A stretch of 64,000 bases of DNA from a virus, in the IMG/VR virus record IMGVR_UViG_3300028840_002150, positions 1-64,000 of that record; one strand, given 5' to 3'. How positions within the stretch are numbered: position 1 is the first letter of the stretch; every line of letters starts with the position of its first letter. Shown here piece by piece: positions 10,504 through 64,000 of this stretch. The position numbers and the translations under genes are program-made. The notes beneath the pieces were generated by a model. It worked only from the letters and a program-made list of their open reading frames with translations, was not told the origin of the DNA and searched no databases.

Positions 10504-10529
10504 CAATATCAGCGCCCATTCCGCGAATA
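10504..10529 (+). promoter_or_regulatory. Repeated promoter-like motif CAATATC-N13-CGAATA (copy 1 of 22)
   Basis: caatatc agcgcccattccg cgaata, followed by GGAGG and GTG at 10559. Confidence 0.75.
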
Positions 10530-18913: not shown

Positions 18914-20080
18914 TTACCCCCAGGTGAGCATTGCCTTGGCCGCAGCTTCCATGTCTCGCTCCGCGTAGATTTCCGTGGTCCGCAAATCCGAATGGCCGAG
19001 AATGATCCGGGACATTTCGGCGCCGTACTGGCGGCGGATTTCGGTAGCCGCGGTGTGGCGTAACTGATTTGGCGTCCAGGGTGGTATGCCAGCCCGCTGG
19101 CAGGCGAACCGCACCGCATCTGAGTAGCCCGAGTTTTTGTAGGGCCGGTTGGCCAGCTTGGAATGCCGGTCCCGTATCCGCTTCGGCTTGCCGCCGGATT
19201 TTTGTCGTTGGCGCCAGCCCTTTCCCTCGCAGGGACGAAACAGATACCGCTCGGGTTCAGCCGGTTGCATCCAGGCGGTGAGTAGGTCCTGGGCGCGGGG
19301 CCCGCACAGGATAAGCCGGTGCTTGCCGTGGTGCTCGGTCTTGTGCGAAGCGGGACGATACACCCAGACTTGGCCGCGGAGTTGAGCCGGAACGGCAGCA
19401 TCTTCGGCCCGAACATCGCAGGTCCGCACGATCCGGGCTTCACCCGGCCGGCAGCCGGTGTATAGCTGAAACTGGATCATAGCCCAGACCGGCGGGGTGA
19501 CGTATTCGCGGATAGCCTCGACGTGCTCCAGCGGCGCGGGCGGAACATCTCGCGGTTCCGGGGCGTCGGTTTCTTCCCGCCGCAATCCCCGGACCGCCTG
19601 AAGGCCGATCAGCACATCGGGCGGCAGGTACTCCCGCTCCACCCCCCAGCGCCAGACATTTCGGATCCGGCTGACGTGGCCGTTGACCCGGCGCCGGGTG
19701 TAGCCGTGCTCAACCAATTTCTGGCGGCAGGCAATCAGCGCTTGCGGCCCAAATGAGGCGGCCGGAATTCCAGAGTACATCTCAACCACTGGGCGCAGGG
19801 CGTACCGATAGGAGCGAATTTCGCTGGTTGGTGTTCCGGCCTTTTGGTACCGTTTTTCGGCCCAAGAGTAAAATAGGGAGACCAGCTCTGCAACCGTCAG
19901 GACCGCATCGGGTTCCAGGTCCGGCTCGTTGCCGGCCAGGTGTTCCGCGATGACCCGGTGGTATTTGGCGTGGCTTTCCGGGGTACCCCATTTCCCGAGG
20001 TAGATGGCCCGGCCGCGGAGCCGGATTCTGGCCTGTCCGCTGGAGTGGGGCTTCTGCGGGTATTTCGGAGTTCCGGCCAT
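18914..20080 (-). CDS. int: Tyrosine recombinase / phage integrase
   Basis: TGCRPGE (R), HKT (K), PNQLRH, ILGH, TTEIYA (Y); N-terminus GQARIRLRGRAIYLGKWGTPES resembles planctomycete integrases. Confidence 0.93.
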   Translation of the reverse strand: MAGTPKYPQKPHSSGQARIRLRGRAIYLGKWGTPESHAKYHRVIAEHLAGNEPDLEPDAVLTVAELVSLFYSWAEKRYQKAGTPTSEIRSYRYALRPVVEMYSGIPAASFGPQALIACRQKLVEHGYTRRRVNGHVSRIRNVWRWGVEREYLPPDVLIGLQAVRGLRREETDAPEPRDVPPAPLEHVEAIREYVTPPVWAMIQFQLYTGCRPGEARIVRTCDVRAEDAAVPAQLRGQVWVYRPASHKTEHHGKHRLILCGPRAQDLLTAWMQPAEPERYLFRPCEGKGWRQRQKSGGKPKRIRDRHSKLANRPYKNSGYSDAVRFACQRAGIPPWTPNQLRHTAATEIRRQYGAEMSRIILGHSDLRTTEIYAERDMEAAAKAMLTWG

Positions 20081-20131
20081 GGCTCCCGCCTCCTGGGGTA
20101 ATGGTTGCGGCATATCGGATGCTGATGGTAA

Positions 20132-48923: not shown

Positions 48924-50279
48924 ATGGCAAGAGCAAAGAACCAAGAGGCCGCCAAGCAGGCGGAATCCGAACCCGTCAAGTCCGCCCCCTCCGGGCCGCG
49001 CATCCGCAACAAGGAAATCCGCACCGTTAGGGTAGCGGATATTCTGGACCACCCGAAAAACTGGAGGCGGCACCCAGCCGAACAACAAGCTGCCCTGGAC
49101 GGCGTGGTTTCCGAAATCGGCTGGATTGGCTACCCCGATGCTTTCGAGCACCCGTCTTATCCGGGCAAAATCATGCTCGTTGACGGCCACCTTCGCAAAG
49201 CCCACCTGATCGGCAAGTACGGGGAAGACGCCGAAATCCAAGTCAACGTCACCGATCTGGATATCGAGGAGGCGGATAAGGCGCTAGTCACACGGGACCC
49301 GTTGGCGGCCATGGCGGAAACGGACGCGGCCATTCTGCGGGATGTATTGGCCGGGATCGAAGCGGAAAACGCCGATCTTGCGGCCATGCTCGAAGCCTTA
49401 GACGAGGACGCACAGGCAATCCTGGAAGACGCGGCAGAATCGGAACCGCCCGAAATCACCGAAGATGAAGTCCCGGAACCGCCAGCGGACCCCATTACAA
49501 GACCGGGAGACCTGTGGATACTCGGGGAGCATCGGTTGCTATGCGGGGACTCGACTAAGGCGGAGGATGTGAAAAAATTGATGGAAGAAATGCGTGCGTA
49601 TCTTTTGGCGACAGATCCGCCGTATGGGGTCAATTTTGCGGGAGCCAAATACAACCCCCGCGCAAAGCATTGGGATGGAATCCAAAACGACACGAAGCAA
49701 GGCGAAGACCTTAAGTCGTTCGTTGTCGCAACATTGAATGCCTGGGTGCCGTATATCGATGAAGCAGCCGGGTTCTATTTTTGGACAGCAGCGATGGAAG
49801 AAGGCGCCGCCGCCGCCGCCGCCATTCGAGAAATCGGCTTACACATCCAGTCACAAATTATCTGGAACAAAAATACACTCGTCTTGGGACAGGCCGACTA
49901 TCAATGGAAGCACGAAAATTGCTGGTACGCATTCTGGAAGGGGAAACACCATAGATGGTTCGGGGGACGAGATAAAACGACTGTCTGGGATGTTGCGAAG
50001 GTGGCAAATTCTGCGTATGAACACCCGATGCAAAAACCAGTTGAATTGTACGCTATTCCGATCCGTCACCACACCCAAAACGGCGAGGTGATCGCCGAGC
50101 CATTCGCGGGAAGTGGTTCTCAGTTTATCGCCGCCGAACAGTTGGGCCGCAAATGCTACGGCATGGAAATCGGCCCGCAATACTGCGACGTAATTCTCAA
50201 CCGCTTCCGCAAGTTACGACCGAACAAGCCGATCACCCGTCAAGACGGCAAGACATGGGACGAGTTATCCGCCGCATAG
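48924..50279 (+). CDS. ParB-like N-terminal domain + DNA methyltransferase
   Basis: HPKNWRRHP..VDGHLR; GEHRLLCGDST, TDPPYG, HPMQKPV, EPFAGSGS. Confidence 0.9.
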   Translation: MARAKNQEAAKQAESEPVKSAPSGPRIRNKEIRTVRVADILDHPKNWRRHPAEQQAALDGVVSEIGWIGYPDAFEHPSYPGKIMLVDGHLRKAHLIGKYGEDAEIQVNVTDLDIEEADKALVTRDPLAAMAETDAAILRDVLAGIEAENADLAAMLEALDEDAQAILEDAAESEPPEITEDEVPEPPADPITRPGDLWILGEHRLLCGDSTKAEDVKKLMEEMRAYLLATDPPYGVNFAGAKYNPRAKHWDGIQNDTKQGEDLKSFVVATLNAWVPYIDEAAGFYFWTAAMEEGAAAAAAIREIGLHIQSQIIWNKNTLVLGQADYQWKHENCWYAFWKGKHHRWFGGRDKTTVWDVAKVANSAYEHPMQKPVELYAIPIRHHTQNGEVIAEPFAGSGSQFIAAEQLGRKCYGMEIGPQYCDVILNRFRKLRPNKPITRQDGKTWDELSAA

Positions 50280-50732: not shown

Positions 50733-52832
50733 GTGGCGAAGCTGGGAACCGAAGTGGCAATGGCGGCAAGCGGGGCCACGCTGGAAGAGGCCGGGCTGGC
50801 GTGTATCGGATGGGACTGCCCGCGGGACCTGAAGTTCTTTGCCGAAGTGTTTTGGGGCGTAGTGGAGCCGGGGAGGGACCTGATATGGGGGAAACATCTA
50901 TCGGCCATAGCCGAACACCTGGAAGCCGTCCGGCGCCGGCAAATCAAGCGGCTACTGATTACCGTCCCGCCGCGTACCACCAAATCCTCCCTGGTATCGG
51001 TGCTCTGGCCGGCGCAAGTCTGGACAACCGATCCGAGCCACCAGTTCCTTTGCGTATCCCACTCGGACGGGCTGGCTACGCGGGACACTCGGAAGATGCG
51101 GTCTATCGTGGAGTCGGACCTGTACCAATCCTATTGGGGCCGGGCTACCCGGCTAAGCCACGACCAAAACCAGAAGACCCGCTTCGAGAACGTGAGCCGC
51201 GGCCAGCGGGTGTCCTTCGGCATCTCGGCATCTTTCACCGGCGAGGGCGGAGACACGATCATCCTGGACGATTTGCTTGACCGGGACCGGGCCATGAGCG
51301 AGGCCCACCGCATCGCGGCTATCGAGGCGCTGGACGAGAAGATCAGCACCCGGCTCAACGACCCGGCAACCGGGGCTATCGTGATGATCGCTCAACGCTT
51401 ACACGAATCCGACCCCCCCGGACATGCCATCAAGCAAGGCGGATGGGAACACCTAAACCTGCCGATGCGGTTTGAGCCGGACCACCCGTTCCTATCCACC
51501 ACATCGCTTCATTTCGTGGACTGGCGGACCCAAGACGGGGAGTTACTGTGGCCGAAGCGGTTTCCCGAAAACGTGGTCAAGCAAATGGAGCGAACCCTTG
51601 GGCCCTACGGATCGGCCGGGCAGTTGCAACAGCGGCCGGCGCCCAGGGGTGGCGGGATGTTCAAGCGGGACTGGTTCCAGCCGGTGGCCCGCCAAAATGC
51701 CCCGCCTATCTCGGATTACGACGAGCTGTGCCGATTCTGGGATTTGGGCGGCACGGAGGACGGGGGCGACCCGACAGCCGGGGTGCTGATCGGCCGCCGC
51801 GGGGCCAAGTATTTCATCCACGGCTGCCAGCAGGGGCAATGGTCCGCCAATGACCGGGACACGCGGATCGTACAGACCGCCTCCCACGACAACGCCCTAT
51901 TCGGGCCGAAGGTAATGACCGGCGTGGAACAGGAACCCGGCGCCGCCGGCAAGCAGGTGGCGGAAAACCTGGTCCACCGGCTAACTGGATCCGGCTACCG
52001 GGCGTTTAAGGAGCCGGCGCAAGGCGACAAGCCCACCCGCGCGGAGTCATTCCAGGCCGCTTGTGAGCGCGGTGATGTCTACGTGATCGAGGGGGACTGG
52101 CTGGAGCCGTTCCTGGCCGAGCTGGAGCTATTCCCCTACGGGCAGCATGACGACCGCGTGGATGCGGTTTCCGGGGCGTTCCGCTATGTGAGCCGAGACC
52201 ACGGGCACCCACTGGACCCGCACGCCGTAGTGGCCGCGGCCGGCATGACCTACGAAGAGGCCCGCAAGTTCGATACGTTCCGGGCATCCGTTGGCGCGGT
52301 CTATCGAGATTACCGAACCCAGGAAATCGGCTTTGCTTTGGTCGGGGTCAATCCGGATGTACGGGAGTACACCTTGCTGGATTCGGCCCAATACGACCGG
52401 GCCGACGAAGCCGCGGCCAAGGACATCAGCGCCAGGGCCAAGGCACGCCGGGTACTCGGGATCGGCTATCCGGAAGCTGACGGGCATTCATTCGCCTCGT
52501 TGCTGAAGAAGGCGTGGGCAGAATCGGAAGCCCGACCGGATCCGAAATTCGCCGGACCGCTGACGGTCTACCCCAAGGAGCTATCCCCAAAGGTCCGAAC
52601 CATTATTGGCGGTCACGTCGTCACCGCCTTCCGGGATGGCAAGCTGCAACTGTTCGAGGACGACGAGCTACTTCGCCAAATCATCCGACTACCGATCGCC
52701 CGCAAGCCAGCGGGGTTCTCGTTGGAGGACCCCGAGGAGCACCAGACCAACCTGGCCCGCGCCTACGCGCTCGCCTTGGCCATGTTCTGGGCGCCGTACA
52801 ACATGGCCCAATACTTGCGGGAGAAGAATTAG
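50733..52832 (+). CDS. terL: Terminase large subunit with C-terminal extension
   Basis: VPPRTTKS (Walker A), IILDD (Walker B), QRLHESD, FWDLG, EQEPGAAGK, FPYGQHDDRVDA. Confidence 0.93.
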   Translation: MAKLGTEVAMAASGATLEEAGLACIGWDCPRDLKFFAEVFWGVVEPGRDLIWGKHLSAIAEHLEAVRRRQIKRLLITVPPRTTKSSLVSVLWPAQVWTTDPSHQFLCVSHSDGLATRDTRKMRSIVESDLYQSYWGRATRLSHDQNQKTRFENVSRGQRVSFGISASFTGEGGDTIILDDLLDRDRAMSEAHRIAAIEALDEKISTRLNDPATGAIVMIAQRLHESDPPGHAIKQGGWEHLNLPMRFEPDHPFLSTTSLHFVDWRTQDGELLWPKRFPENVVKQMERTLGPYGSAGQLQQRPAPRGGGMFKRDWFQPVARQNAPPISDYDELCRFWDLGGTEDGGDPTAGVLIGRRGAKYFIHGCQQGQWSANDRDTRIVQTASHDNALFGPKVMTGVEQEPGAAGKQVAENLVHRLTGSGYRAFKEPAQGDKPTRAESFQAACERGDVYVIEGDWLEPFLAELELFPYGQHDDRVDAVSGAFRYVSRDHGHPLDPHAVVAAAGMTYEEARKFDTFRASVGAVYRDYRTQEIGFALVGVNPDVREYTLLDSAQYDRADEAAAKDISARAKARRVLGIGYPEADGHSFASLLKKAWAESEARPDPKFAGPLTVYPKELSPKVRTIIGGHVVTAFRDGKLQLFEDDELLRQIIRLPIARKPAGFSLEDPEEHQTNLARAYALALAMFWAPYNMAQYLREKN

Positions 52833-54412: not shown

Positions 54413-54922
54413 ATGGAGCGAAAGCGTGGGTACGGGCAAGCGGAACCGACGGTCGGCAAGCCGGTGGAGCTGCCGCAGCCAGCCGGGCAACGATGCGAGC
54501 CGCAGTTGGATCCGGGCGAGTGGGGCATTCTATTACAGCGGCGCAGAACGGACTCGGAGCAATGGCGGGAATGCCGGTGGTTTAGCCTGGAGGAAATCGC
54601 GGATGCCCTGTGGGAACAAGCGGCGCGGGCGTTTCAGGTGTTGGAAAGCGACTACGTACAGCCGATTAAGCCGATCCCCTGGACCGACTGCCTGTGCTCC
54701 GAAGTCGTCTGCCTGGATCCGGACGCAGAGTATCCGCCGGTAGCTGACACGCTGGAACGCGCGGAGGGCGAAAGCCAGTTCGATTACGAGGACCGGCTAG
54801 TGCGGCATTTTCACGGTGAGGATGCCTGTCTTAACCGAACAGATAACGGGGCACCGTGGGCCATGCCATGCACGAAGAAGCGGGGCCATGAGGGACCGTG
54901 TAAGTTCGAGGGTTACGCATGA
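54413..54922 (+). CDS. Hypothetical protein
   Basis: ATGA overlap with the methylase. Confidence 0.5.
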   Translation: MERKRGYGQAEPTVGKPVELPQPAGQRCEPQLDPGEWGILLQRRRTDSEQWRECRWFSLEEIADALWEQAARAFQVLESDYVQPIKPIPWTDCLCSEVVCLDPDAEYPPVADTLERAEGESQFDYEDRLVRHFHGEDACLNRTDNGAPWAMPCTKKRGHEGPCKFEGYA

Positions 54923-56781
54923 ACGACTGGACCAGCAAAGACGAAGAAGTCCGAATCCTGTTCGGCGACTGCCGGGAACGGATGAGGGAACTGCCGGACA
55001 ATTCGGTGGATTCGGTGGTCTGCGACCCGCCCTACCTCCTTAGCTTCATGGGGCGCGAATGGGATAGCGTGGGCGGAAAGAAGGGGATGCGGGATGAAAC
55101 ACGGGCACGACAGAGGTCGGAGTACGCAGACAGCGCCCCTGGAGCACCGCGATATGCGGCTTCGGCGGTTCCTGCTGCGTTGAAGCCGGGTGAAGCCACC
55201 GCCATGCAGGCTTGGCACCACTCCTGGGCCGTGGAAGCCTACCGCGTCCTGAAACCCGGTGGCCACCTCCTCGCGTTCGGCGGCACCAGAACTGTTCATC
55301 GCCTCGCCTGCGCCCTGGAAGATGCCGGGTTCGAGATCCGGGACAGTATCCTGGAAATGCTCGCATCGGATCAAGCGTTTCGGGATCTGTGGGACACGTT
55401 AGCGCCGGAACAGCAAGAGGCGATGGGCAAGGCATTGGAATCGGTGGGGCTGACGGGGTTGCTGTCTTGGAACCACTCACAAGGATTTCCGAAAGGCTTG
55501 AACGTGTCCAAGAAGATCGACCGGATTCTTGGGGCGGAACGGGAAGTGGTCGCCACACGCGAAGAGCACAACATCTGCCGACCGGAAGGTGGCGGTGACG
55601 AGCGGTTCAATACGTCGTCCGGCGCCCGTGAAACAAGGACCGTCGAGACGACCGCCCCCGCCACTCCCGAGGCCAAGAAATGGGACGGCTTTAACGTGGC
55701 CATGAAGCCGAGCTTTGAGCCAGTGGTATGCTGCCGTAAACCCTTATCCGAGTCCAACGTCGCCAGCAATGTGCTGAAGTGGGGGACGGGAGCACTGAAT
55801 ATCGGGGCATGTAGAGTGGGAACGGAGATCGTTCCGCAACAAATCGGCGGCATGGAGCGATTCAACCAGAAGGCGCATGAACACGGCTATCGCCCCAACG
55901 CATACCAAAAAGACAATGGGCGAAACGGCGAAGCATCCGCAGAAAGCCGATACGACGAAAAAGGCAGCACCAACTTTGCCGCCATGCCGGGACCGCGGAA
56001 CGGCTCGCCGCAAGGTCGCTGGCCCGCCAACACCGTCTTACTTCACCATCCCGAGTGTGTGTGCAGGGGGGTGAAGAAGGTCAAGGGCGGAACTGGAGGA
56101 AAGGCGTCGGGTGACAATGCGTTCGGCCACGATTCTGGGTGGAATAAACACAACAATCGGTCAACGAAAATCGTTCGGCAAAATGACGAAAACGGACAAG
56201 AGCAGGTCGAAGACTGGGACTGCCACCCGGAATGCCCTGCCTTTTTACTAAACAAGCAATCTGGAAAAAGCAAAAGTAGCGGAGGACAAGCGTCGCTAGG
56301 AGCATTTCGAGGCGGCAAAATCTACGGCGAAGGCAAGGACGTTCGAGAACAGAGGGATCCAGGTTACGGGGACTCTGGTGGCGCTTCCCGCTTCCTATAC
56401 CAAGCCAAAGCGTCGCGCCGCGACCGCTGGTTTTACTGCCGCGACTGCCAAGCCGCCTTCTGCGAGACCGAACGCCAGGACCACCAGCACGGCCACGACA
56501 AGGGTAAGCCGGACTGGAAGCATATCGTTGCGCACCCAACGGTCAAACCGCTGTCCCTGATGCGGTATTTGGCAAGGCTGGTAACGCCGCCGGGAGGTGT
56601 CGTCCTGGACCCGTTCCTTGGCACGGGCACCACGGCGGTCGCCTGCATCGAGGAAGGTTTTCGGTGCATCGGCTGCGAGCAAGATCCCGAGTATGCCGTG
56701 ATTGCGCGGACCAGGGTGGAAGCGAAGGCCGCGGAAGAACAAGACCGGTTTCCTTTGTTCAGGGAGCAACCCCATGCCTGA
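54919..56781 (+). CDS. DNA methyltransferase (N4/N6, beta class) with large insertions
   Basis: VDSVVCDPPY, RVLKPGG, GRWPAN, HPTVKP, LDPFLGTGTT. Confidence 0.9.
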   Translation: MNDWTSKDEEVRILFGDCRERMRELPDNSVDSVVCDPPYLLSFMGREWDSVGGKKGMRDETRARQRSEYADSAPGAPRYAASAVPAALKPGEATAMQAWHHSWAVEAYRVLKPGGHLLAFGGTRTVHRLACALEDAGFEIRDSILEMLASDQAFRDLWDTLAPEQQEAMGKALESVGLTGLLSWNHSQGFPKGLNVSKKIDRILGAEREVVATREEHNICRPEGGGDERFNTSSGARETRTVETTAPATPEAKKWDGFNVAMKPSFEPVVCCRKPLSESNVASNVLKWGTGALNIGACRVGTEIVPQQIGGMERFNQKAHEHGYRPNAYQKDNGRNGEASAESRYDEKGSTNFAAMPGPRNGSPQGRWPANTVLLHHPECVCRGVKKVKGGTGGKASGDNAFGHDSGWNKHNNRSTKIVRQNDENGQEQVEDWDCHPECPAFLLNKQSGKSKSSGGQASLGAFRGGKIYGEGKDVREQRDPGYGDSGGASRFLYQAKASRRDRWFYCRDCQAAFCETERQDHQHGHDKGKPDWKHIVAHPTVKPLSLMRYLARLVTPPGGVVLDPFLGTGTTAVACIEEGFRCIGCEQDPEYAVIARTRVEAKAAEEQDRFPLFREQPHA

Positions 56782-57491
56782 CGCCACTTGCAAGCGGTTC
56801 GGATCACGGCAGACCATTCAGCATATCGGCAAGGTGCGTTGCCTCGCTGGCTGGGCCTTCGTCTTGGTTGTGGCCTTTCCGTACCTGTTCTCTGCGGTCG
56901 TGAACGAATTGACTTTCCGGTTCATGTGTGCCTGCGAGGCGACGGCGCAATGGATCTGGGATCGGGAACCGTGGCGAGAGGCGTACAGGCGGGAGATGGA
57001 GAACGGGTGATCCGTACAAGCGAAAGGGGGCGACATGAGCCGCAGGGGGTGCGACCATTTTATCGACGAGGTAACCCAAACCATTAACCGCATGCGGCAA
57101 GAGTACGAAATGACCTACGCCGAAATCATCGGGTGCCTGTGTTTGCTGCGGGCCGATATGGAGATGGAGGCCGCTGATGACGGCGAATGAACCCGCGGCA
57201 GAATCGCCGCTCTGGAGCTTCCGCAAATACGACCGACCGGACGATGTAGGGTGGGCCGGTTGGATCGAAGTATGCGGAGAGATAATCGCGTTTATCGGGC
57301 TGGATAGGCGGATAACATGGGCAAATCCGCCGCAGCCTTTGAGGAACAGTTTCGAGTGCCCGCACTGTGGCCGAACACACGACCCGGCGGCGGAAGACGC
57401 CGAGCACCATTGTATTCCGCAACTAACCCCAGGCCGTCCACCGCATATTGTGTGTCCAGGATGCGGCAAGTGCATGGGGTGTGATGAATAA
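56774..57491 (+). other. Small hypothetical genes (56774-57010, ~57035-57180, 57177-57491)
   Basis: Overlaps; CxxC pairs. Confidence 0.45.
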
Positions 57492-57508
57492 GAGCCAAGG
57501 GGAACGGC

Positions 57509-58033
57509 ATGGCAATTGACCTACAGGCGTTTTGCGACGAAGAATGTCAACCCAGATATGCAAGGAAGGATTCCTTGAACCTAACACGACCGTTCGAGAT
57601 TGAGCTGCAATTCCCGTGGGCGAGCGGCACTTACGCGGCGGCCACGGACGCGGCAATCATCGTCGTGTCGAAACAGCCGTTGCCGTGGTTTCCGCCAGGG
57701 CCGTTTCCGAAGGTGCATGTAGCGCTCGCCGATTTTCCGCAAGATCGGCCGCGCAAATGGCGCAAGCTACCGGAACCCCGCCGGTGTGCCGAATGCAACG
57801 GGCTGGGGGTGCTGAAGCATACTTGCGAAAGCTGGTATTGCAGGCGTACCCACTACGGCCGAACGTGCGACAAGTGCCAACTTTCCATCGGCAAAAAACG
57901 CCTGTCCCAGTGGTACGCAAATAAGATCCGCAGCTTGCCGGATGCTGCAATTTGGTCCGACGATGCGGACCCGTGCTCGCCAATTTGGTTTCGGTTTATC
58001 GGCGGGTTCGGGGCCGTGATGCCTACGGCGTGA
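57509..58033 (+). CDS. Zn-finger-containing hypothetical protein
   Basis: IDLQAFC, AATD..I, CAECNG.G, G.G.VMP. Confidence 0.6.
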   Translation: MAIDLQAFCDEECQPRYARKDSLNLTRPFEIELQFPWASGTYAAATDAAIIVVSKQPLPWFPPGPFPKVHVALADFPQDRPRKWRKLPEPRRCAECNGLGVLKHTCESWYCRRTHYGRTCDKCQLSIGKKRLSQWYANKIRSLPDAAIWSDDADPCSPIWFRFIGGFGAVMPTA

Positions 58034-58104
58034 TGACCGGGGTGGCGTCTACCTTGCCCCGTGTCCCCCTATCCAGTAGAGATCCCCACTGAGTATCGGT
58101 CGAA

Positions 58105-58545
58105 ATGCCGCACGCGCACTTTCGGAACGGTTCGGACAGGTGGGCCACCCCGGTGTGGCTGTTTGAGGCACTGGACCGGGAATTCGGCTTCACCCTGGAC
58201 GTGTGCGCGGAACCGGAGACGGCCAAATGCAAGCGGTTCTTCGGCCCGGAGGAAAACGGGCTACTGAAGAACTGGGGGTCCGAAATATGCTGGATGAATC
58301 CGCCCTACTCCGCTACCGCCAAGTGGATGGCCAAGGCCCACAATGCGGCCAACGAGGGGGCCACCGTTGTTTGCCTGGTGCCGAGCAAGACCGATGCCAT
58401 CTGGTTCCACCGGTATGCCTTGAAGCACGAGTGCCGGTTTGTCAAGGGTCGGCTGCGGTTCGGCGGGCCGGATGCCGACAAGGCCCCATTCGCCTCGCTG
58501 GTGGTGGTCATGCGGCCGGATTCTTTCCGGTTGTGCTCTTTGTAG
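58105..58545 (+). CDS. Phage N6-adenine methyltransferase (Dam family)
   Basis: W.TP.WLF..LD.EFGFTLDVCA, WMNPPYS, VCLVP..TD..WF, F.KGRL.F. Confidence 0.9.
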   Translation: MPHAHFRNGSDRWATPVWLFEALDREFGFTLDVCAEPETAKCKRFFGPEENGLLKNWGSEICWMNPPYSATAKWMAKAHNAANEGATVVCLVPSKTDAIWFHRYALKHECRFVKGRLRFGGPDADKAPFASLVVVMRPDSFRLCSL

Positions 58546-58558
58546 CCGGGAGGACCGT

Positions 58559-58735
58559 ATGAGCACCGGCACCCGCGCCGATCCGATCAAACGCCAGCGG
58601 GCCGCCCGCCTATTACGCGAGGGCCGCCCCCACCGCGAAATCGCGCGAGTCACCGGCCTGGCCCGAGAAACCGTCCGCAAACTCGCCTGTGAACAGGCCG
58701 CCCCTTCCCGCCAGAATCAGGCCCGCAAATCATGA
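58559..58735 (+). CDS. Small HTH protein
   Basis: LLREG.P.REIARVTGLARETVRK. Confidence 0.65.
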   Translation: MSTGTRADPIKRQRAARLLREGRPHREIARVTGLARETVRKLACEQAAPSRQNQARKS

Positions 58736-61700
58736 CCCTCACCCAGGAACAGACCGAACGGCTGGACTCCTTGTCGCAACTCCGCCAGACGTTCGAGGCC
58801 GAGAAGGAAGCCCGCGCGGCGCGGGCCATGGAATCCTATCTCCGCACCCAGGAACACCTAGCCAAGGCCAAGCAGTACACCGCGGAATCGTTGGTGTTTA
58901 CCGGGGCGCAGACCTACGTGAACCCGAACGACTACCTTCCCAACATGTTCCGGCGAGACCGGCAGTTGATTTACGGCGGGCACATCGCGGGAATCGGGGA
59001 CCGCTACCGGGGCCGAGACCTGCCGTTCATCTACACGTTGCAGGACGCATCCCAGGCCCGCGGAATGGCCCGGCTTGTCACCAAGACCACCTGCCCCGGC
59101 GTGGGCGTAGAGCAAAACCTGAAGGGCTACATCTGCAAGGACGGGTTCACCTTCCAGGCCGGCGACAAAAAGAACTCCGAAGCTCCCGCCGCTTTGGTCG
59201 CCGCGGTCCAGGACGTGATTGACGACATGCTGGACGCCAACGACTTCACGGGCGATTTGGACAAGGAAATTCTCTGGCGGACCATCCGGGACGGCGAGTG
59301 CTACAACGTGCTCTACCCGCAGAAAGACGGCATCACGATCATTCGCCAACTGGAGCCGGAGCAAAATCCCGAGCCGCCGAATAACCCGTTTACCCCCGAG
59401 GAGCTGTTCACCAGATTCGGCATCGAGACGGCTGAGGACTGCGACTGGTCCCTCGGAGTACACACGCCGGCATGGGACGTGCAGCGGCCCTACGGCTACT
59501 ATGTTCAGTGGGACCCGACCGATGCGGGCGACTACATCCCCGCCGAGCATTGCGTGCATATCAAGTGGGGCGTGGAGCGGAATGTCAAGCGCGGATTGAC
59601 CGCATTTTACCCGAGTTGGCAATGGCTTCTCCAGCAGCAAGATTTGCTGGTAAACACCGGCGAAGGTGCCAAGCGGTTGGCCGCCATCGCCTACATTGTC
59701 CAGTACGCCAACGCTACGGCATCCGAATATCAGGCGATGCGGGACGCCAGCCTCGGAACGTACGATGTGACCGTGGACCTGCCGGGCGGCGGATCGAAGA
59801 CCTACACCCGGACCTTGGACAATCCGGGAGACGTGCTGAACGTCCCGGAGGGGCAGGAGTTCGTTTCCGGCCCGACCGGGCACGAGCGGGGCAATGCGTT
59901 CCTGCAAATCGCACAGGGCATCCTCCGGCAAGTGGCGGTCCAGTTTTGCATGTCGGAGGGGATGATTTCCGGCGACGACAGCAACAATAACTTCGCCTCG
60001 TCCGTGGTGGCTGGCAGCCGGTTCCACACGTTCTGCACTATGATGCAGGGGTGGCTCGGAGGCAAGTTCACGAAGATGGCATGGCGGGCGGTCCAGTTCG
60101 CCTATGATGCCGGGCGGTTCCGCCAATGGGGATTCGAGCCGGGCCGCCGCACGTTCCGCCAATTGCGGCGGATAATCGAAATCAACGTCACCGGGCCGGA
60201 CGTGGCCATCGAGACGGCTGCCGACAAGCAGGCCATCGCCACCTACCGCCAAATCCTCAACCAGTCCGGGGTGCTGTCCAAAAAGACCTGGATGCAGCAC
60301 GAAGACCTGGACGCGGAGCGGGAGCAGAAGCAAATCGAGGAAGAGGGCGGACCGGCGGGAGAACAGCAAGGCGGAGCACCCGGCGCCCCCGGTGCTCCCC
60401 CGGCGCCGGGCGGCGGAGATGGCGGCGAGCCCGAGCCGCCCAGCCCGCCCGCAGGCCCCCCGCCGGCCAAAGCCGCCCAATTGGACGCCGAGCGACCCGC
60501 TACGGAATCCTCCGCCGACAGGCCCGAGGATTGCGGCTGCGCTGCGGAAGACACCGCCGCCGTGCCCACGCAAACGCCCCGCCGCCCCACGGTAGCCGTG
60601 GACCTGGACGGCACGCTCACCCTGCCGGATGGCACGCCGAAGCCGGATGCGCTGGCCGCAATGCAATCCTTGGCCAACTGCGGCTTCTGCCTGATTATCA
60701 ACACCGTTCGCGGAAACCGGCAGGAAGTGGCCACCTGGCTAAGCCGCTACGGCATCCCCTACGACTACATCAACGAGAACCCATTCCAACCGCCCGATAC
60801 GTCCGGCAAGATCATGGCCGACGTGTACCTGGATGACCGAGCCGTGAGCGGGGAGGGGCCGCTTTCGCTGGTTGTGCCCCAGGTAATCGCGCAGGCCACA
60901 CAATCGGCATCGGAGCCGCATCAAGGCGGACCGCCGCCGCTAAACACGCAGCCCGCTTTCGGACAACCCATTGCGGAATCTTCGCGCATTTCCCCCGATA
61001 TTGTGGATCTATCAGCGAATACCCTAATGGCGGAATCCGGTATGGTCCAAGTTTTGGAAGCAGACGGTTCGGCCGTTTGGGAAGGGCAGGCCGCCGATCT
61101 GGGGGAAACCCTGGATGTGGCCCTGGAACTGTACGGGCCGGCAGCGGTCGAGGGGTTGCAGGTTTCCCGGTGTTTCGACGGGAAGGGAGGCGTGGCAGAA
61201 GCCGCCGTCCCTTTTGCGATGGAGAAGGAGGGGGATAAGTGGATTACCCTCCGCTCTGGCGCGCGGGTGCAAATCGACGGCGAGGGAACGATTACCGCGG
61301 GATTTGGCAAGGGTGAAAACATCCGGGCCATGGGCAGGCGGGAAGCCAAGGACAATAAGCCGAAACGGGAACGCGTTGCAACCCCGGAGGAAAAAGTTGC
61401 CGGCCTGTTTTCGGAAAGCGAGAAGAAGCTCCCGAAACAAGCGCAGCAACCGCTAAAAACCCGCGATGAAGTCTACGGAAATGCCACCAAGGTCAAGGAC
61501 CGTTATGACAAGGTTTTGAACCAGGGGCAGGGCGTCGATTCCGCTATCGGGGCCAAAGTGGTGCAAGCACAAGACGCAATGTCGGCCATGGACGAGCCGG
61601 GTCCGGTTGTTATCCTGGCACCGCTGAAAGGCGAGGCAAGAGCCGCCGAAAAGGTGGAGACGAAGTACGGCGGAGATTGGTCGCAACTGCAGGACGTGGT

Positions 61701-62091
61701 GAGGGGAACCGTTGCGGTCGATACCGTGGACGATTTGCCAAAAGTGACGGAGGCGCTGCGGGAGAAAATGGAATCGCAGGGGTTCAAGCTGGCCGCCGCA
61801 CCGGACGACAAAATGAGCAACCCAACCCCGGCGGGCTACCGGGATGTAGCGCTCATGATGGTTTCCCCGGAAGGCATGGTCTGCGAGCTGCAGGTAAACG
61901 TGAAGTCGATGATAAAGGCGAAGCAGGGTCCGGGTCACAAGATGTACGAAGAGGCCCGAGGGATCGAGGCAAAGGCCAAGCTGGAAGGCCGCAACATGAC
62001 CCCCGCCGAGCAAAAGCAAATGCAGGACCTAAACGGAAAAATGACCAAGTTGTACGCGGACGCCTGGAAGCAGGCGGTGGGGGGTAAGTGA
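58732..62091 (+). CDS. Portal-like protein fused to HAD-like and RelA/SpoT-like nucleotidyltransferase domains
   Basis: Portal-like part (RTIRDGEC, H.K......KRG, GDDSNNNFAS) downstream of terminase; VDLDGTL..K..ADVYLDDRA (HAD); PLK..R..EK, LQDVVR, GYRD, ELQV, GHKMYE (RelA-like). Confidence 0.8.
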   Translation: MTLTQEQTERLDSLSQLRQTFEAEKEARAARAMESYLRTQEHLAKAKQYTAESLVFTGAQTYVNPNDYLPNMFRRDRQLIYGGHIAGIGDRYRGRDLPFIYTLQDASQARGMARLVTKTTCPGVGVEQNLKGYICKDGFTFQAGDKKNSEAPAALVAAVQDVIDDMLDANDFTGDLDKEILWRTIRDGECYNVLYPQKDGITIIRQLEPEQNPEPPNNPFTPEELFTRFGIETAEDCDWSLGVHTPAWDVQRPYGYYVQWDPTDAGDYIPAEHCVHIKWGVERNVKRGLTAFYPSWQWLLQQQDLLVNTGEGAKRLAAIAYIVQYANATASEYQAMRDASLGTYDVTVDLPGGGSKTYTRTLDNPGDVLNVPEGQEFVSGPTGHERGNAFLQIAQGILRQVAVQFCMSEGMISGDDSNNNFASSVVAGSRFHTFCTMMQGWLGGKFTKMAWRAVQFAYDAGRFRQWGFEPGRRTFRQLRRIIEINVTGPDVAIETAADKQAIATYRQILNQSGVLSKKTWMQHEDLDAEREQKQIEEEGGPAGEQQGGAPGAPGAPPAPGGGDGGEPEPPSPPAGPPPAKAAQLDAERPATESSADRPEDCGCAAEDTAAVPTQTPRRPTVAVDLDGTLTLPDGTPKPDALAAMQSLANCGFCLIINTVRGNRQEVATWLSRYGIPYDYINENPFQPPDTSGKIMADVYLDDRAVSGEGPLSLVVPQVIAQATQSASEPHQGGPPPLNTQPAFGQPIAESSRISPDIVDLSANTLMAESGMVQVLEADGSAVWEGQAADLGETLDVALELYGPAAVEGLQVSRCFDGKGGVAEAAVPFAMEKEGDKWITLRSGARVQIDGEGTITAGFGKGENIRAMGRREAKDNKPKRERVATPEEKVAGLFSESEKKLPKQAQQPLKTRDEVYGNATKVKDRYDKVLNQGQGVDSAIGAKVVQAQDAMSAMDEPGPVVILAPLKGEARAAEKVETKYGGDWSQLQDVVRGTVAVDTVDDLPKVTEALREKMESQGFKLAAAPDDKMSNPTPAGYRDVALMMVSPEGMVCELQVNVKSMIKAKQGPGHKMYEEARGIEAKAKLEGRNMTPAEQKQMQDLNGKMTKLYADAWKQAVGGK
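60996..61021 (+). promoter_or_regulatory. Intragenic copy of the repeated motif
   Basis: cgatatt gtggatctatcag cgaata; in-frame ATG at 61027. Confidence 0.5.
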
Positions 62092-62285
62092 TGGCAGACA
62101 CAAAGTATGTTGACTCCGAAGGGGCGCTGTTGCGCTGGTTAGACCACGCAATGCCGTTTCGTGAAGTGTACCGCAAGGGCGGCAAGTGGGTGCCCTACGG
62201 CGGCGAGTATAGCGATTGGCTTTACGGTAAGCCGCTGTCGGATTCGGAAGCCCGCGAACGAATGAAGCAGATCGACGAGGACTGA
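62088..62285 (+). CDS. Small protein, candidate immunity/antitoxin partner
   Basis: 65 aa; GTGA overlap with the RelA-like fusion. Confidence 0.5.
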   Translation: MMADTKYVDSEGALLRWLDHAMPFREVYRKGGKWVPYGGEYSDWLYGKPLSDSEARERMKQIDED

Positions 62286-62287
62286 CC

Positions 62288-64000
62288 ATGCCGGTTGACA
62301 TTCCGCTCTTGAAAGCCCTCCAGCGTCGCGCATCTCTGAGGCTGTTGGAAACGTGGTCCGGGAACCGCGGCGGGGATACCGTAGTCGCCGAAGAGGAACG
62401 CTGGATTACCACCGACAACGGGAAGCGGATGAAGATTGACGACTCCGGCAAGATTACCGCCGGTCCTGGGGCGGGGATGAACATCTCCGATTTTGGCAAG
62501 CACGGCCCGAGCGGCAAAAAGTCTCAAGCGGCAAGTGGTGGCGACAAGCCGCTGGACGTGGATAAGTCCGGCGATGAACTGGCCGCGGACCGCAAAGCCA
62601 AGCTGATGCAAGCGTTTCGCAAAAACGCCGGCGACGATGGGGGCGAGGCCGCGCCTGCCGAGCGGGCAAGCCAGGCGGCTACGCGGGGCAATGACGAAGG
62701 GTTGAAATCCGGAGAGCAACTAGCCGCAGACCGCAAGGCGAAACTTCAGCAGGCGTTCAAAGCGCAGCAGGACATCGCCCGAGCATCGGCCAACAAGCAA
62801 AGCAAGATTGACGGCGCCCGCCGTTCGTCGCCCGGCGATACGGAGCCGGTGGTTCGCGATACGTACAAGGCCGCGGAAACCCTGGAAAAGTTGGCTCCCG
62901 GCACTACCACCAAACAGGCCGCGCAAATGTCCGGGGCCCCGGATGAAGCGGTGGTGGATCTAAGCCAAGCCAAAGGCGGCGCGGTCCGGTACCATGCGAT
63001 GGATGACCGGTTCGAGGCAACCGGCACCATCCGCCGCGCGGAAGATGGCAAACTCGAGGTCCGCTACGATCGGCTAAGTATCCTGCCCGATGCCCGCGGG
63101 ACCGGGTTCGGCGCCGAGCTGTTGAACAATCAGGTACACGCTGCGGAAAAAAGCGGGGTGTCTCGGATCCGCGTCGAGGCCGTGGGCAACTATATGGAAA
63201 ACGATCTACGGAACGGCTACTACGCGTTTCCCCGCATGGGGTTCGACGGCGACTTGCCGGGCGATTGGAAAGGCCAGATGGAAGCCAACGGCGCGATGGG
63301 GGACGCTTTGCCGGCGGACCTGCAAAACGCCACCAAGGTTTCGGACCTGATGAAAACGCCGCAAGGGCGGGAGGCGTGGAAAAAGTACGGCTTCCCGATG
63401 GAGCTAACCTTGGACACCACTCCAGGTTCCCAGGGCCGCAAGGTGTTTGACGCCTACTACCAAAGCGGCGACCGCAAGGGGACGGATCTGAAGGTGGAAT
63501 CCGCGCCGCCACGAGAAATGCCGCTCATGGAAGAGGGGCAGGAAGTACCGGAACCGGGGGACGATGAGCGGGAGGTGGACATCGATCTCGGCATTGACGA
63601 CGACGAAGACATCTTCGCCGAAATCTGGGATACGCTCGAAGACGACGCGGAGCCTGACGCAGAACCCGGCGAGGGGACCGTCACCGAGGCCGCCGACAAG
63701 TACGCCGATGTGGACCTGACGCCGACTAAGGGGATGCAGGCAGCGGCCAGAAATGGCGTGGAGCGGCATGAAAACGGCGAGACGGGCGACGGGCTGAAAC
63801 CGGAGACCGTATCCCGAGCTAACCGGATTGCACGCGGCGAGCGGCTTACCCCCGAGCACGTCCGCGAAATGTCCGGCTGGTTCGCGCGGCACGGCAAGGA
63901 CAAGCAGGAACCCGGCACCCCTTGGTATGCCGCGTGGCAGCTTTGGGGCGGCAACGCGGGGGAATCCTGGAGCAAGGACAAGTCCGCGGAATTGGACCGC
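62288..64000 (+). CDS. 3'-truncated multidomain head-associated protein with GNAT-like domain (absent from ORF track)
   Basis: ATG at 62288, open to the window end; WITTDNGKRMKIDDSGKITAG; LPDARGTGFG...NGYY.FPRMGF (GNAT); MSGWFARH...AWQLWGG..G..W head-module domain. Confidence 0.75.
   Translation, partial: MPVDIPLLKALQRRASLRLLETWSGNRGGDTVVAEEERWITTDNGKRMKIDDSGKITAGPGAGMNISDFGKHGPSGKKSQAASGGDKPLDVDKSGDELAADRKAKLMQAFRKNAGDDGGEAAPAERASQAATRGNDEGLKSGEQLAADRKAKLQQAFKAQQDIARASANKQSKIDGARRSSPGDTEPVVRDTYKAAETLEKLAPGTTTKQAAQMSGAPDEAVVDLSQAKGGAVRYHAMDDRFEATGTIRRAEDGKLEVRYDRLSILPDARGTGFGAELLNNQVHAAEKSGVSRIRVEAVGNYMENDLRNGYYAFPRMGFDGDLPGDWKGQMEANGAMGDALPADLQNATKVSDLMKTPQGREAWKKYGFPMELTLDTTPGSQGRKVFDAYYQSGDRKGTDLKVESAPPREMPLMEEGQEVPEPGDDEREVDIDLGIDDDEDIFAEIWDTLEDDAEPDAEPGEGTVTEAADKYADVDLTPTKGMQAAARNGVERHENGETGDGLKPETVSRANRIARGERLTPEHVREMSGWFARHGKDKQEPGTPWYAAWQLWGGNAGESWSKDKSAELDR

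Follow-up and report, generated by a model that had tools for sequence, protein, structure and literature searches.

A phage portal protein extended by a HAD-type phosphatase and a Tas1-like RelA/SpoT-homologue synthetase, encoded next to a small predicted inhibitor

Phage MuF proteins with a RelA/SpoT domain have been predicted to be toxins since 2012 (PMC3482391), and between 2023 and 2025 such toxins were shown to make (p)ppApp. The MuF-fused (p)ppApp synthetase toxins named Apk2 belong to temperate phages and come with IapK/Tis1-like and Aph1 immunity proteins, with examples from Bacteroides caccae, S. pneumoniae, and M. haemolytica (PMC10083569, PMC12226406). Tis1 and IapK inhibit (p)ppApp synthetases by occluding the acceptor site (PMC11782079, PMC12226406). 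Fusions of portals to effectors were predicted in 2017: Iyer et al. (PMC5512222) name portals joined to PBECR, 2H, and InPase domains as well as MuF proteins joined to RelA/SpoT, and predict that phage-type polyvalent proteins are packaged into the head and injected. Here, we describe a locus in the virus record IMGVR_UViG_3300028840_002150, the complete genome of an uncultured marine phage of 102,420 bp with a terminal overlap of 145 bp, whose first 64,000 nucleotides were analysed (the window). One open reading frame (ORF) of the window encodes P0001, a portal protein of 1119 amino acids that ends in a RelA/SpoT-homologue (RSH) synthetase domain, and is overlapped by a small gene for a putative inhibitor, P0002. 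The coordinates of all features are compiled in Table 1.

The initial annotation had recognised a portal-like region, a HAD domain, and an alarmone-synthetase-like C-terminus in P0001, and all three calls hold by profile and structure matches. The synthetase motifs follow one another in order within a domain of about residues 900 to 1119. A single-sequence AlphaFold2 prediction of residues 868–1119 was poor, with a predicted local distance difference test (pLDDT) value of 52, and an alignment-based model of the domain with a pLDDT of 95.5 was used instead. Foldseek returned 74 matches at E ≤ 1e-3, and the top matches listed were all RSH synthetases, led by Tas1 (E 2.6e-10) and followed by RelP, RelQ, Rel, SaEAS, and CapRel. 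Superposition with VIA-align gave Z-scores of 15.9–14.1 to SAS1, SAS2, RelP, SaEAS, and Tas1. The root-mean-square deviation was 2.4 over 170 aligned residues for SAS1 (Z 15.9) and 2.7 over 165 aligned residues for Tas1 (Z 14.1), with 32% identity in the latter case. Thus, the C-terminal domain has a nucleotidyltransferase fold of the Pol-beta type, as in SYNTH domains, and Tas1 is the nearest known toxin.

Sequence searches pointed to the same protein. The Tas1 chain of PDB entry 6OX6 was found with E 4.9e-6 by the single sequence and with E 1.1e-17 by a 48-member profile. With 67.7 bits in the profile search of the PDB, Tas1 was far ahead of the other solved RSH proteins; SaEAS and RelA reached only about 1e-4, and CapRel and FaRel2 were not found. 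The residues K966, K974, D988, R991, G1017, Y1036, D1038, G1048, E1052, and H1069 are invariant in the 48 sequences, and Q1054 is nearly so (at least 90%) and invariant in a nine-sequence alignment. Among them are the expected basic residues, Mg-binding Asp, stacking Tyr, catalytic Glu/Gln, and His of Syn1–Syn5, in register with the motifs of Tas1 and RelA. Both the Syn2 motif (DVVRGT vs. DLARNT in Tas1) and the Syn4 motif (ELQVN vs. EIQVN) are Tas1-like. The residues listed as ATP-binding in Tas1, R330, K353, E382, and Q384 (PMC12691689), align with R991, K1019, E1052, and Q1054. We conclude that the domain is, by its sequence, a Tas1-like nucleotide 3'-pyrophosphokinase with intact catalytic motifs and predicted enzyme activity. 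The product would most likely be (p)ppApp, although this assignment is not safe.

An exhaustive search with the domain yielded 2647 cluster representatives at E ≤ 1e-3. Many of the homologues have 200–400 amino acids, and many form part of giant multidomain proteins, the longest of which has 4399 amino acids. The family is also found joined to a ribosome-modulation-factor-like segment (P0008, just under the Pfam cut-off) and to a topoisomerase-I-like core (P0007).

The overlapping gene of 65 codons proposed in the initial annotation proved to have the properties of a genuine gene. Its ATG at position 62091 overlaps the TGA stop codon of the P0001 ORF (TGATG) and is preceded by a G-rich, Shine-Dalgarno-like run, and its own stop codon lies 2 nucleotides before the next ATG at 62288. 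The GC contents at the three codon positions, 0.61/0.41/0.70, follow the pattern of real genes in the same genome. These features indicate that the small gene is real and translationally coupled. P0002 alone retrieved no relatives in a word-index search, and its family surfaced only via synteny: in a set of 22 viral loci with the same synthetase family, the small ORF downstream repeatedly resembles P0002, and these small ORFs have pairwise blastp E-values of 1e-12 to 8e-4 and share the pattern Y..DG...R....E...G.W.PY.G....G..ls..EA (alignment A2). A profile search recovered further members of the family, already predicted as genes by other pipelines in other metagenomes. In 12 of 23 loci, the hidden Markov model of the family locates the module directly behind the synthetase. 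Nine of these have it as a separate gene, namely L001, L004, L012, L013, L014, L015, L016, L017 (a weak match), and the cultured phage PHB04; L014 and L015 have identical coordinates and are apparently the same phage. In the remaining three, the module is fused in frame behind the synthetase (L003:4963-6948, L007:5173-7869, and L010:4675-6885). The A2 profile matched no chain in the PDB at E ≤ 10, Tis1 of 6OX6 included, in what was a comparison of sequences only, and a PADLOC scan of P0002 gave a JetD match at chance level only. To judge from these comparisons, the P0002 family is a new protein family that was not previously described.

The predicted complex of the RSH domain with P0002 reached an ipSAE interface score of 0.85, compared with 0.15 for the best control. 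Of 80 solved complexes, 58 attain this mark, as do 2 of 110 mismatched pairs; these counts apply only approximately, as our own alignments were used. Three runs agreed in at least 93% of the contacts, and the partner had a pLDDT of at least 88. In the model, the interface consists of D988, the P-T-P-A-G-Y1036 loop, and Y1072/R1076, which form the acceptor side of the cleft; the conserved partner residues Y45-G46 contact this side and are placed, together with L44, against the Y1036 loop. P0002 resembles no PDB chain by sequence, so the model probably does not simply reproduce a complex that had been solved before. P0002 is, on this model, a predicted active-site-occluding inhibitor of the RSH domain. 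The initial annotation had expected a downstream partner of the immunity type. The locus does have a conserved partner, with a predicted binding site in the active-site cleft; its sequence is not Tis1- or IapK-like, and some relatives carry it as a fusion with the enzyme.

The portal assignment is based on phrog_21 (E 2e-21, residues 175–594) and on the nearest ESM Atlas clusters, all of which are portals (score 0.97). The Pfam model for lambda-family portals also matched (E 5e-5), under its cut-off, and the TIGRFAM lambda portal model was likewise under its cut-off. In the complete genome, P0001 is the only portal-like match to phrog_21, and phrog_12 gave no match. The large terminase gene is located about 6 kb upstream of P0001, with DNA methyltransferase genes in between. 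A tblastn search of the cultured phages with the portal part found no match. Related-locus searches of viral contigs with the single portal sequence or the single RSH domain sequence found nothing, and neither did a search with an alignment of Portal_Mu fusions. The Pro/Gly linker behind the portal, as previously noted, is evident from the translation and a composition scan (residues about 536–620). Solved portals form a dodecameric ring at one capsid vertex, and the C-terminus of known portals lies inside the capsid. With the portal C-terminus facing the capsid interior, a C-terminal cargo would sit in the head, in up to 12 copies.

The HAD domain, initially identified by its DxDGT motif, contains all four HAD motifs in an alignment to PDB 2OBB (E 0.022): motif I is DLDGT (D624-L-D626-G-T628, nucleotides 60601–60615), and T658, K693, and D700-D701 represent motifs II, III, and IV. 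The domain matches phrog_1238 (E 5e-21) and the NCBIfam BT0820 HAD phosphatase model (E 1.8e-6), the latter with 28 bits against an equivalog cut-off of 165, and is thus not an equivalog. Stand-alone homologues of the HAD domain occur in 80 cultured phage records, commonly as proteins of 120 amino acids that are often mislabelled as "phosphoheptose isomerase." The HAD domain was found in none of the other retrieved RSH-family proteins, so HAD and RSH are not an obligate pair. The middle region (residues 707–835) has neither a Pfam or PHROG match nor relatives among the retrieved proteins, and residues 715–900 gave no ESM Atlas match. The short "WIT" module in front of the synthetase has a second copy, with which the following large protein begins. 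It occurs in 4 of 157 RSH-family proteins (P0001, P0005, P0015, and P0159), and the idea that it is a general tag of the synthetase family was rejected for this reason.

Portals and the synthetase family meet repeatedly. Besides the lambda-like portal of P0001, the same family is fused to Phage_portal_3 portals (P0005, P0008) and to Portal_Mu portals (P0032, P0058, P0066). By sequence, these fusions to three portal families look like independent events. In L001, L007, L010, and L013, the portal gene is located directly upstream of a separate synthetase gene. Among 50,697 cultured phage records, the synthetase family is present in one, that of Bordetella phage vB_BbrM_PHB04. Its gp033, encoded behind the synthetase gene, matches the small partner family with an hhalign probability of 96.8%. 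The gene order in PHB04 mirrors the Apk2-Tis1/IapK-Aph1 cassette of the MuF toxins, which has been studied by experiment (PMC10083569), and the phage offers a ready experimental model of the cassette. The PHB04 genes are annotated as hypothetical, except for the portal and two phosphatase-type genes.

The best explanation of the locus as a whole, to which we give slightly better than even chances, is that P0001 is a portal extended in a beads-on-a-string manner by two enzymes, a HAD phosphatase and an RSH synthetase, and that the synthetase is a portal-borne cargo restrained by P0002 and delivered to the next host. Packaging, release, delivery, product, and toxicity are the steps that we infer. 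In the producer cell, the synthetase would be made together with P0002, which would sit over the acceptor-nucleotide site and hold the enzyme off, so that ATP-dependent packaging would not be poisoned. The cargo would enter each head with the portal ring, in up to twelve copies. The synthetase would presumably be freed from both the portal and the inhibitor and would then act in the next host, where it would use ATP to pyrophosphorylate an acceptor. This acceptor would most likely be ATP or ADP, yielding (p)ppApp. As a consequence, ATP would be drained and the host metabolism shut down, in parallel to what has been proposed for the Apk2-type MuF-fused toxins.

Several points weigh against this explanation. 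The Syn3 motif of P0001 reads G-Y-R-D1038-V-A1040, and the family consensus is GYRD. (p)ppApp synthetases have GxN at this site and (p)ppGpp synthetases SxH (PMC12226406). The GxN signature, represented by N370 in Tas1, is absent from P0001, and as GYRD-x-A corresponds to neither form, the acceptor is uncertain. Moreover, (p)ppGpp is the sole product of some Apk1 homologues (PMC12691689). The RelA_SpoT model PF04607 did not match P0001 at E ≤ 1. Its cut-off of 27 bits is reached by relatives (P0010, 35.0; PHB04 gp034, 30.6; P0022, 29.7; P0032, 27.3), and the model is simply too far from the P0001 subfamily. The fused forms at L003, L007, and L010 do not fit an immunity protein that is left behind in the producer, and an autoinhibitory or regulatory module fits them better; from these sequences, we would regard the small module no less as an autoinhibitory switch than as a classical immunity protein. 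Prohead proteases of the families S78, S49, and S77 were not found in the phage genome. A promoter-like motif inside the P0001 ORF may allow the synthetase to be expressed apart from the portal.

A bolder version, which we consider tentative and on balance doubtful, would make portals a general and as yet undescribed loading dock for self-inhibited enzyme cargo. A pyrophosphokinase with GYRD as a new acceptor-site signature, and possibly with a new product, would be mounted twelve-fold in the head under the control of a new family of inhibitors of 60–70 amino acids, either separate or fused, and would be switched on only by stripping or cleavage upon DNA ejection. A free copy made from the internal promoter would turn this into a two-stage attack on nucleotide pools, with one dose injected and one expressed.

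The internal promoter-like motif is central to the alternative that survives best. The motif CAATATC-N12-GCGAATA(A/C)C occurs in 22 copies in the window, all on the + strand, compared with 0.32 expected. Most copies belong to a region of small genes at 10–48 kb: 21 are located at 10504–48331 and one at 60996, and further copies are present in the genome at 64735 and at 96106. In most cases, a C/A-rich leader with a GGAG ribosome site comes after the motif, which probably represents the phage's own promoter class. For the P0001 ORF, about 0.01 chance copies on the same strand are estimated. Scans for sigma-70 promoters and terminators at 58400–64000 gave results at chance level only. The 60996 copy is followed by in-frame ATG codons at 61027 (M766) and 61042 (M771), which would give a candidate free WIT-RSH protein of 354 amino acids. 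This copy is a candidate second expression route for the synthetase, and it is likely a scar of the fusion event.

On this basis, the synthetase might act inside the phage-carrying cell, a reading that we regard as unlikely. The 60996 element would drive the free 354-residue protein and P0002 as a toxin-antitoxin-like pair, and the join to the portal would be recent and of little meaning. Host takeover, superinfection exclusion, and abortive infection in the lysogen are the proposed uses, and prophages do encode pairs with a toxic small alarmone synthetase (toxSAS), such as PhRel and CapRel. The excess of motif copies, with one placed exactly at the border before WIT-RSH, speaks for such a role, as does the stand-alone homologue P0015 (364 amino acids), which has the same WIT and RSH layout. 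The genome also encodes a tyrosine recombinase/integrase (18914–20113, - strand; PF00589, 43.9 bits), which heads a block of minus-strand ORFs. With this gene, lysogeny is possible and the phage may be temperate; most phages with MuF toxins are temperate (PMC5576092). The fused enzyme-inhibitor forms, in turn, resemble the fused toxin-antitoxin CapRel (PMC11782079). However, the 60996 copy has two mismatches and lacks the C/A-rich leader and the GGAG site of the other copies. Fusions to three portal families and the repeated adjacency to portal genes are hard to explain if the link is meaningless, and the genes reside in a late head module beside a polyvalent protein. The in-cell and the injected routes are compatible and do not exclude each other.

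We consider it rather improbable that the HAD and RSH domains are counter-defence or RNA-end tools, with the RSH domain acting on the 3' end of tRNA or on a defence signalling nucleotide and the HAD domain, which is distantly similar to the 3'-phosphatases of polynucleotide kinases, trimming phosphorylated ends or nucleotides. GYRD is invariant in the family and unlike both known nucleotide-specific signatures (PMC12226406), the HAD domain matches phrog_415 (annotated as polynucleotide kinase, E 2.7e-5) and, weakly, Pnkp1 in the PDB, and the tRNA pyrophosphokinase CapRel is a structural match to the RSH domain with Z 12.6. Interference with signalling was proposed for RelA/SpoT domains of polyvalent proteins by Iyer et al. 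(PMC5512222). On the other hand, the sequence is much nearer to Tas1, as the profile scores reveal, with CapRel and FaRel2 not found by sequence at all. A predicted inhibitor on the acceptor site is the pattern of alarmone-making rather than tRNA-modifying toxSAS (PMC11782079), the PHB04 relative is followed by an HD_4 alarmone-hydrolase-type gene, and the HAD domain does not recur in the other retrieved RSH-family proteins.

It is hardly credible that the fusion is an artefact, i.e., an overlooked stop codon, a frameshift error, or a chimeric metagenome join: the genome is known from metagenomes only, the linker DNA is GC-rich, of low complexity, and matched by short pieces of other contigs, and the GC content at third codon positions is 0.72–0.73 in the extension versus 0.82 in the portal part, yet positions 58700–62400 are covered in a single piece, with 0 differences and 0 gaps, by contigs from two public runs of two studies (either of which may be the source of the record), three contigs on record encode the exact P0001 protein, the genome is complete and has overlapping ends, and RSH domains are fused to portals of unrelated families in at least five further cases. 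The identical sequence is present in two metagenomes, one from sediment and one from seawater. We found no sign of the assembly error that the initial annotation had allowed for. A frameshift in the linker that would yield a short portal was dropped as a candidate; the alternative frames are open over long stretches, and slippery sites were not looked at closely.

The neighbouring gene also speaks for the portal-borne cargo, our preferred explanation. The gene following P0002 encodes a protein of 812 amino acids with an InPase domain (PF18823, a polyvalent-protein domain, E 1e-43); its GNAT matches are below the cut-off. Two further proteins of the family carry additional enzymes: P0114 combines InPase and synthetase in one protein, and P0156 combines a zeta-toxin kinase with the synthetase. 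In view of these joins and the neighbouring InPase gene, the locus belongs among the phage-type polyvalent proteins. P0001 itself has two unrelated effector domains, HAD and RSH, in one polypeptide encoded among virion genes, as polyvalent proteins do.

Four DNA methyltransferase genes lie among the packaging and head genes (48924–50279, 54919–56781, 58105–58545, and genome 67285–68031), an unusually heavy anti-restriction load; one of them has a ParB-like N-terminal part. At genome positions 64962–69571 (L023:2962-7571), where scaffold, protease, and major capsid protein are expected, the ORFs have no PHROG hit, and the sole Pfam match, DUF5320, is below its cut-off. The structural module of the phage is thus very divergent. 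In a blastn search of the cultured phages with positions 54919–62285, the methyltransferase gene was the only match and the portal-RSH ORF remained unmatched. A PADLOC scan of P0001 gave nothing.

Table 1. Features of the portal-synthetase locus and of the related cassette in a cultured phage. Positions refer to the window unless stated otherwise.
Feature	Position	Strand	Remarks
Whole ORF, protein P0001, 1119 amino acids	58732..62091	+	Portal - linker - HAD - middle region - WIT module - RSH synthetase
Portal domain, residues 1-535	58732..60336	+	phrog_21; profile match residues 175-594
Linker, Pro/Gly/Ala- and acid-rich, residues 536-620	60337..60591	+	Translation, composition scan
Capless HAD-type phosphatase, residues 621-706	60592..60849	+	phrog_1238, NCBIfam BT0820, PDB 2OBB
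Second linker and middle region without recognisable family, residues 707-835	60850..61236	+	
Promoter-like motif copy, 2 mismatches	60996..61021	+	Inside P0001 ORF, just before WIT-synthetase part
"WIT" module KWITLRSGARVQIDGEGTITAGFGKGENI, residues 836-864	61237..61323	+	
Tas1/Apk1-like RSH synthetase (pyrophosphokinase) domain, residues 900-1119 (predicted)	61429..62088	+	
Syn1	61624-61656	+	K966/K974
Syn2	61690-61719	+	D988-x-x-R991
Syn3	61822-61848	+	G1035-Y1036-R-D1038 (GYRD)
Syn4	61882-61911	+	E1052-x-Q1054
Syn5	61933-61959	+	H1069-x-x-Y1072
Small partner gene (P0002), 64 amino acids from ATG (65 from GTG 62088)	62091..62285	+	Coupling, codon bias, family, complex prediction
Next gene, 812 amino acids in full	62288-64726 in genome (L023:288-2726)	+	WIT, weak GNAT-like region, InPase
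Large terminase (TerL)	50733-52832		Upstream of P0001
PHB04 cassette	L025, NC_047861.1, 33289-39176		Portal gp035, 493-aa RelA_SpoT gp034, 69-aa gp033, HD_4 hydrolase gp032, NinI-like phosphatase

Taken as a whole, the portal is a new carrier, and P0002 a new predicted antidote, for an already known kind of phage-head toxin cargo. In the literature, as far as article texts go, figures aside, we found no description of a portal-RSH fusion, of the small partner family, or of a HAD domain in such a setting. The locus bears on the question of whether the toxin domains of MuF-type head proteins are injected and of what use they are to the phage (PMC10083569, PMC5576092). Since cargo fused to a portal has a set copy number (12) and a set place (the capsid interior), packaging and release are directly testable by mass spectrometry and cryo-electron microscopy. 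The partner family would add a new protein inhibitor of RSH enzymes, which is also encoded by the cultured phage PHB04, and within the Tas1-like clade, the GYRD form of Syn3 may be the sign of another acceptor specificity. According to a 2026 preprint, portals of the T7 type bind and inhibit the host RelA and SpoT (10.64898/2026.01.27.700999). A portal that carries its own synthetase would be an intriguing counterpart to these, as a parallel only.

How does the locus relate to the systems described so far? The initial annotation had invoked MuF-type toxins, and in this respect it has to be corrected: the portal itself is the carrier, and P0001 has no Pfam match to a MuF domain (PF04233, PF06152, MuF3/4) at E ≤ 1. 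A match to phrog_7625, "head morphogenesis," covers the RSH part only (residues 980–1102). With the MuF polymorphic toxins (Jamet et al. 2017), the locus shares a C-terminal toxin-type domain and a small downstream ORF in a packaging module near portal and terminase genes. With the polyvalent proteins, as far as the accessible text of PMC5512222 describes them, it shares several unrelated enzymes on one polypeptide of the head module, and RelA/SpoT and InPase, the latter found in the neighbouring gene, are both among the phage-only domains listed there. P0001 differs in having no processing peptidase domain; that text describes neither a portal-RelA/SpoT fusion nor a HAD domain in such a setting, nor does it mention the small partner family.

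CapRel SJ46 (PDB 7ZTB), a fused toxSAS-antitoxin, is matched by the arrangement at L003, L007, and L010, where the module follows the synthetase in the same way as the pZFD antitoxin does in CapRel. CapRel is, however, a tRNA-modifying protein of host defence whose inhibition takes place at the ATP donor site, the modules have no sequence similarity, and P0002 is encoded by a separate gene. Tas1/Apk1-Tis1, a type VI secretion system (T6SS) effector pair of Pseudomonas aeruginosa (PDB 6OX6), is the nearest sequence relative of known structure. Both systems have the same signatures in Syn2 and Syn4, and in both the cognate protein is encoded immediately downstream. In contrast to the phage portal, Tas1 is delivered from a bacterium by PAAR and the T6SS, the Tis1 fold is not recognisable in P0002 by sequence, and the position aligned with N370 is Ala in P0001, with an invariant Asp two residues earlier.

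The MuF-fused Apk2 toxins are compared last. They differ from P0001 in their carrier, which is MuF, present in 1–2 copies in SPP1, instead of the portal with 12 copies per head. The partner of P0001 has 64 amino acids and no detectable similarity to Tis1, an Aph1/HD_4 hydrolase gene was not found in the phage genome, P0001 contains an extra HAD phosphatase, and Syn3 is GYRD instead of GxN. In both systems, a phage head-assembly protein encoded in the packaging module ends in a Tas1-like domain, and a small gene follows directly downstream that, for P0002, encodes a predicted acceptor-site blocker. As in Apk2 with Tis1 and Aph1 (PMC10083569), the PHB04 relative has a hydrolase gene as the third member, and delivery with the DNA is a proposal in both systems.

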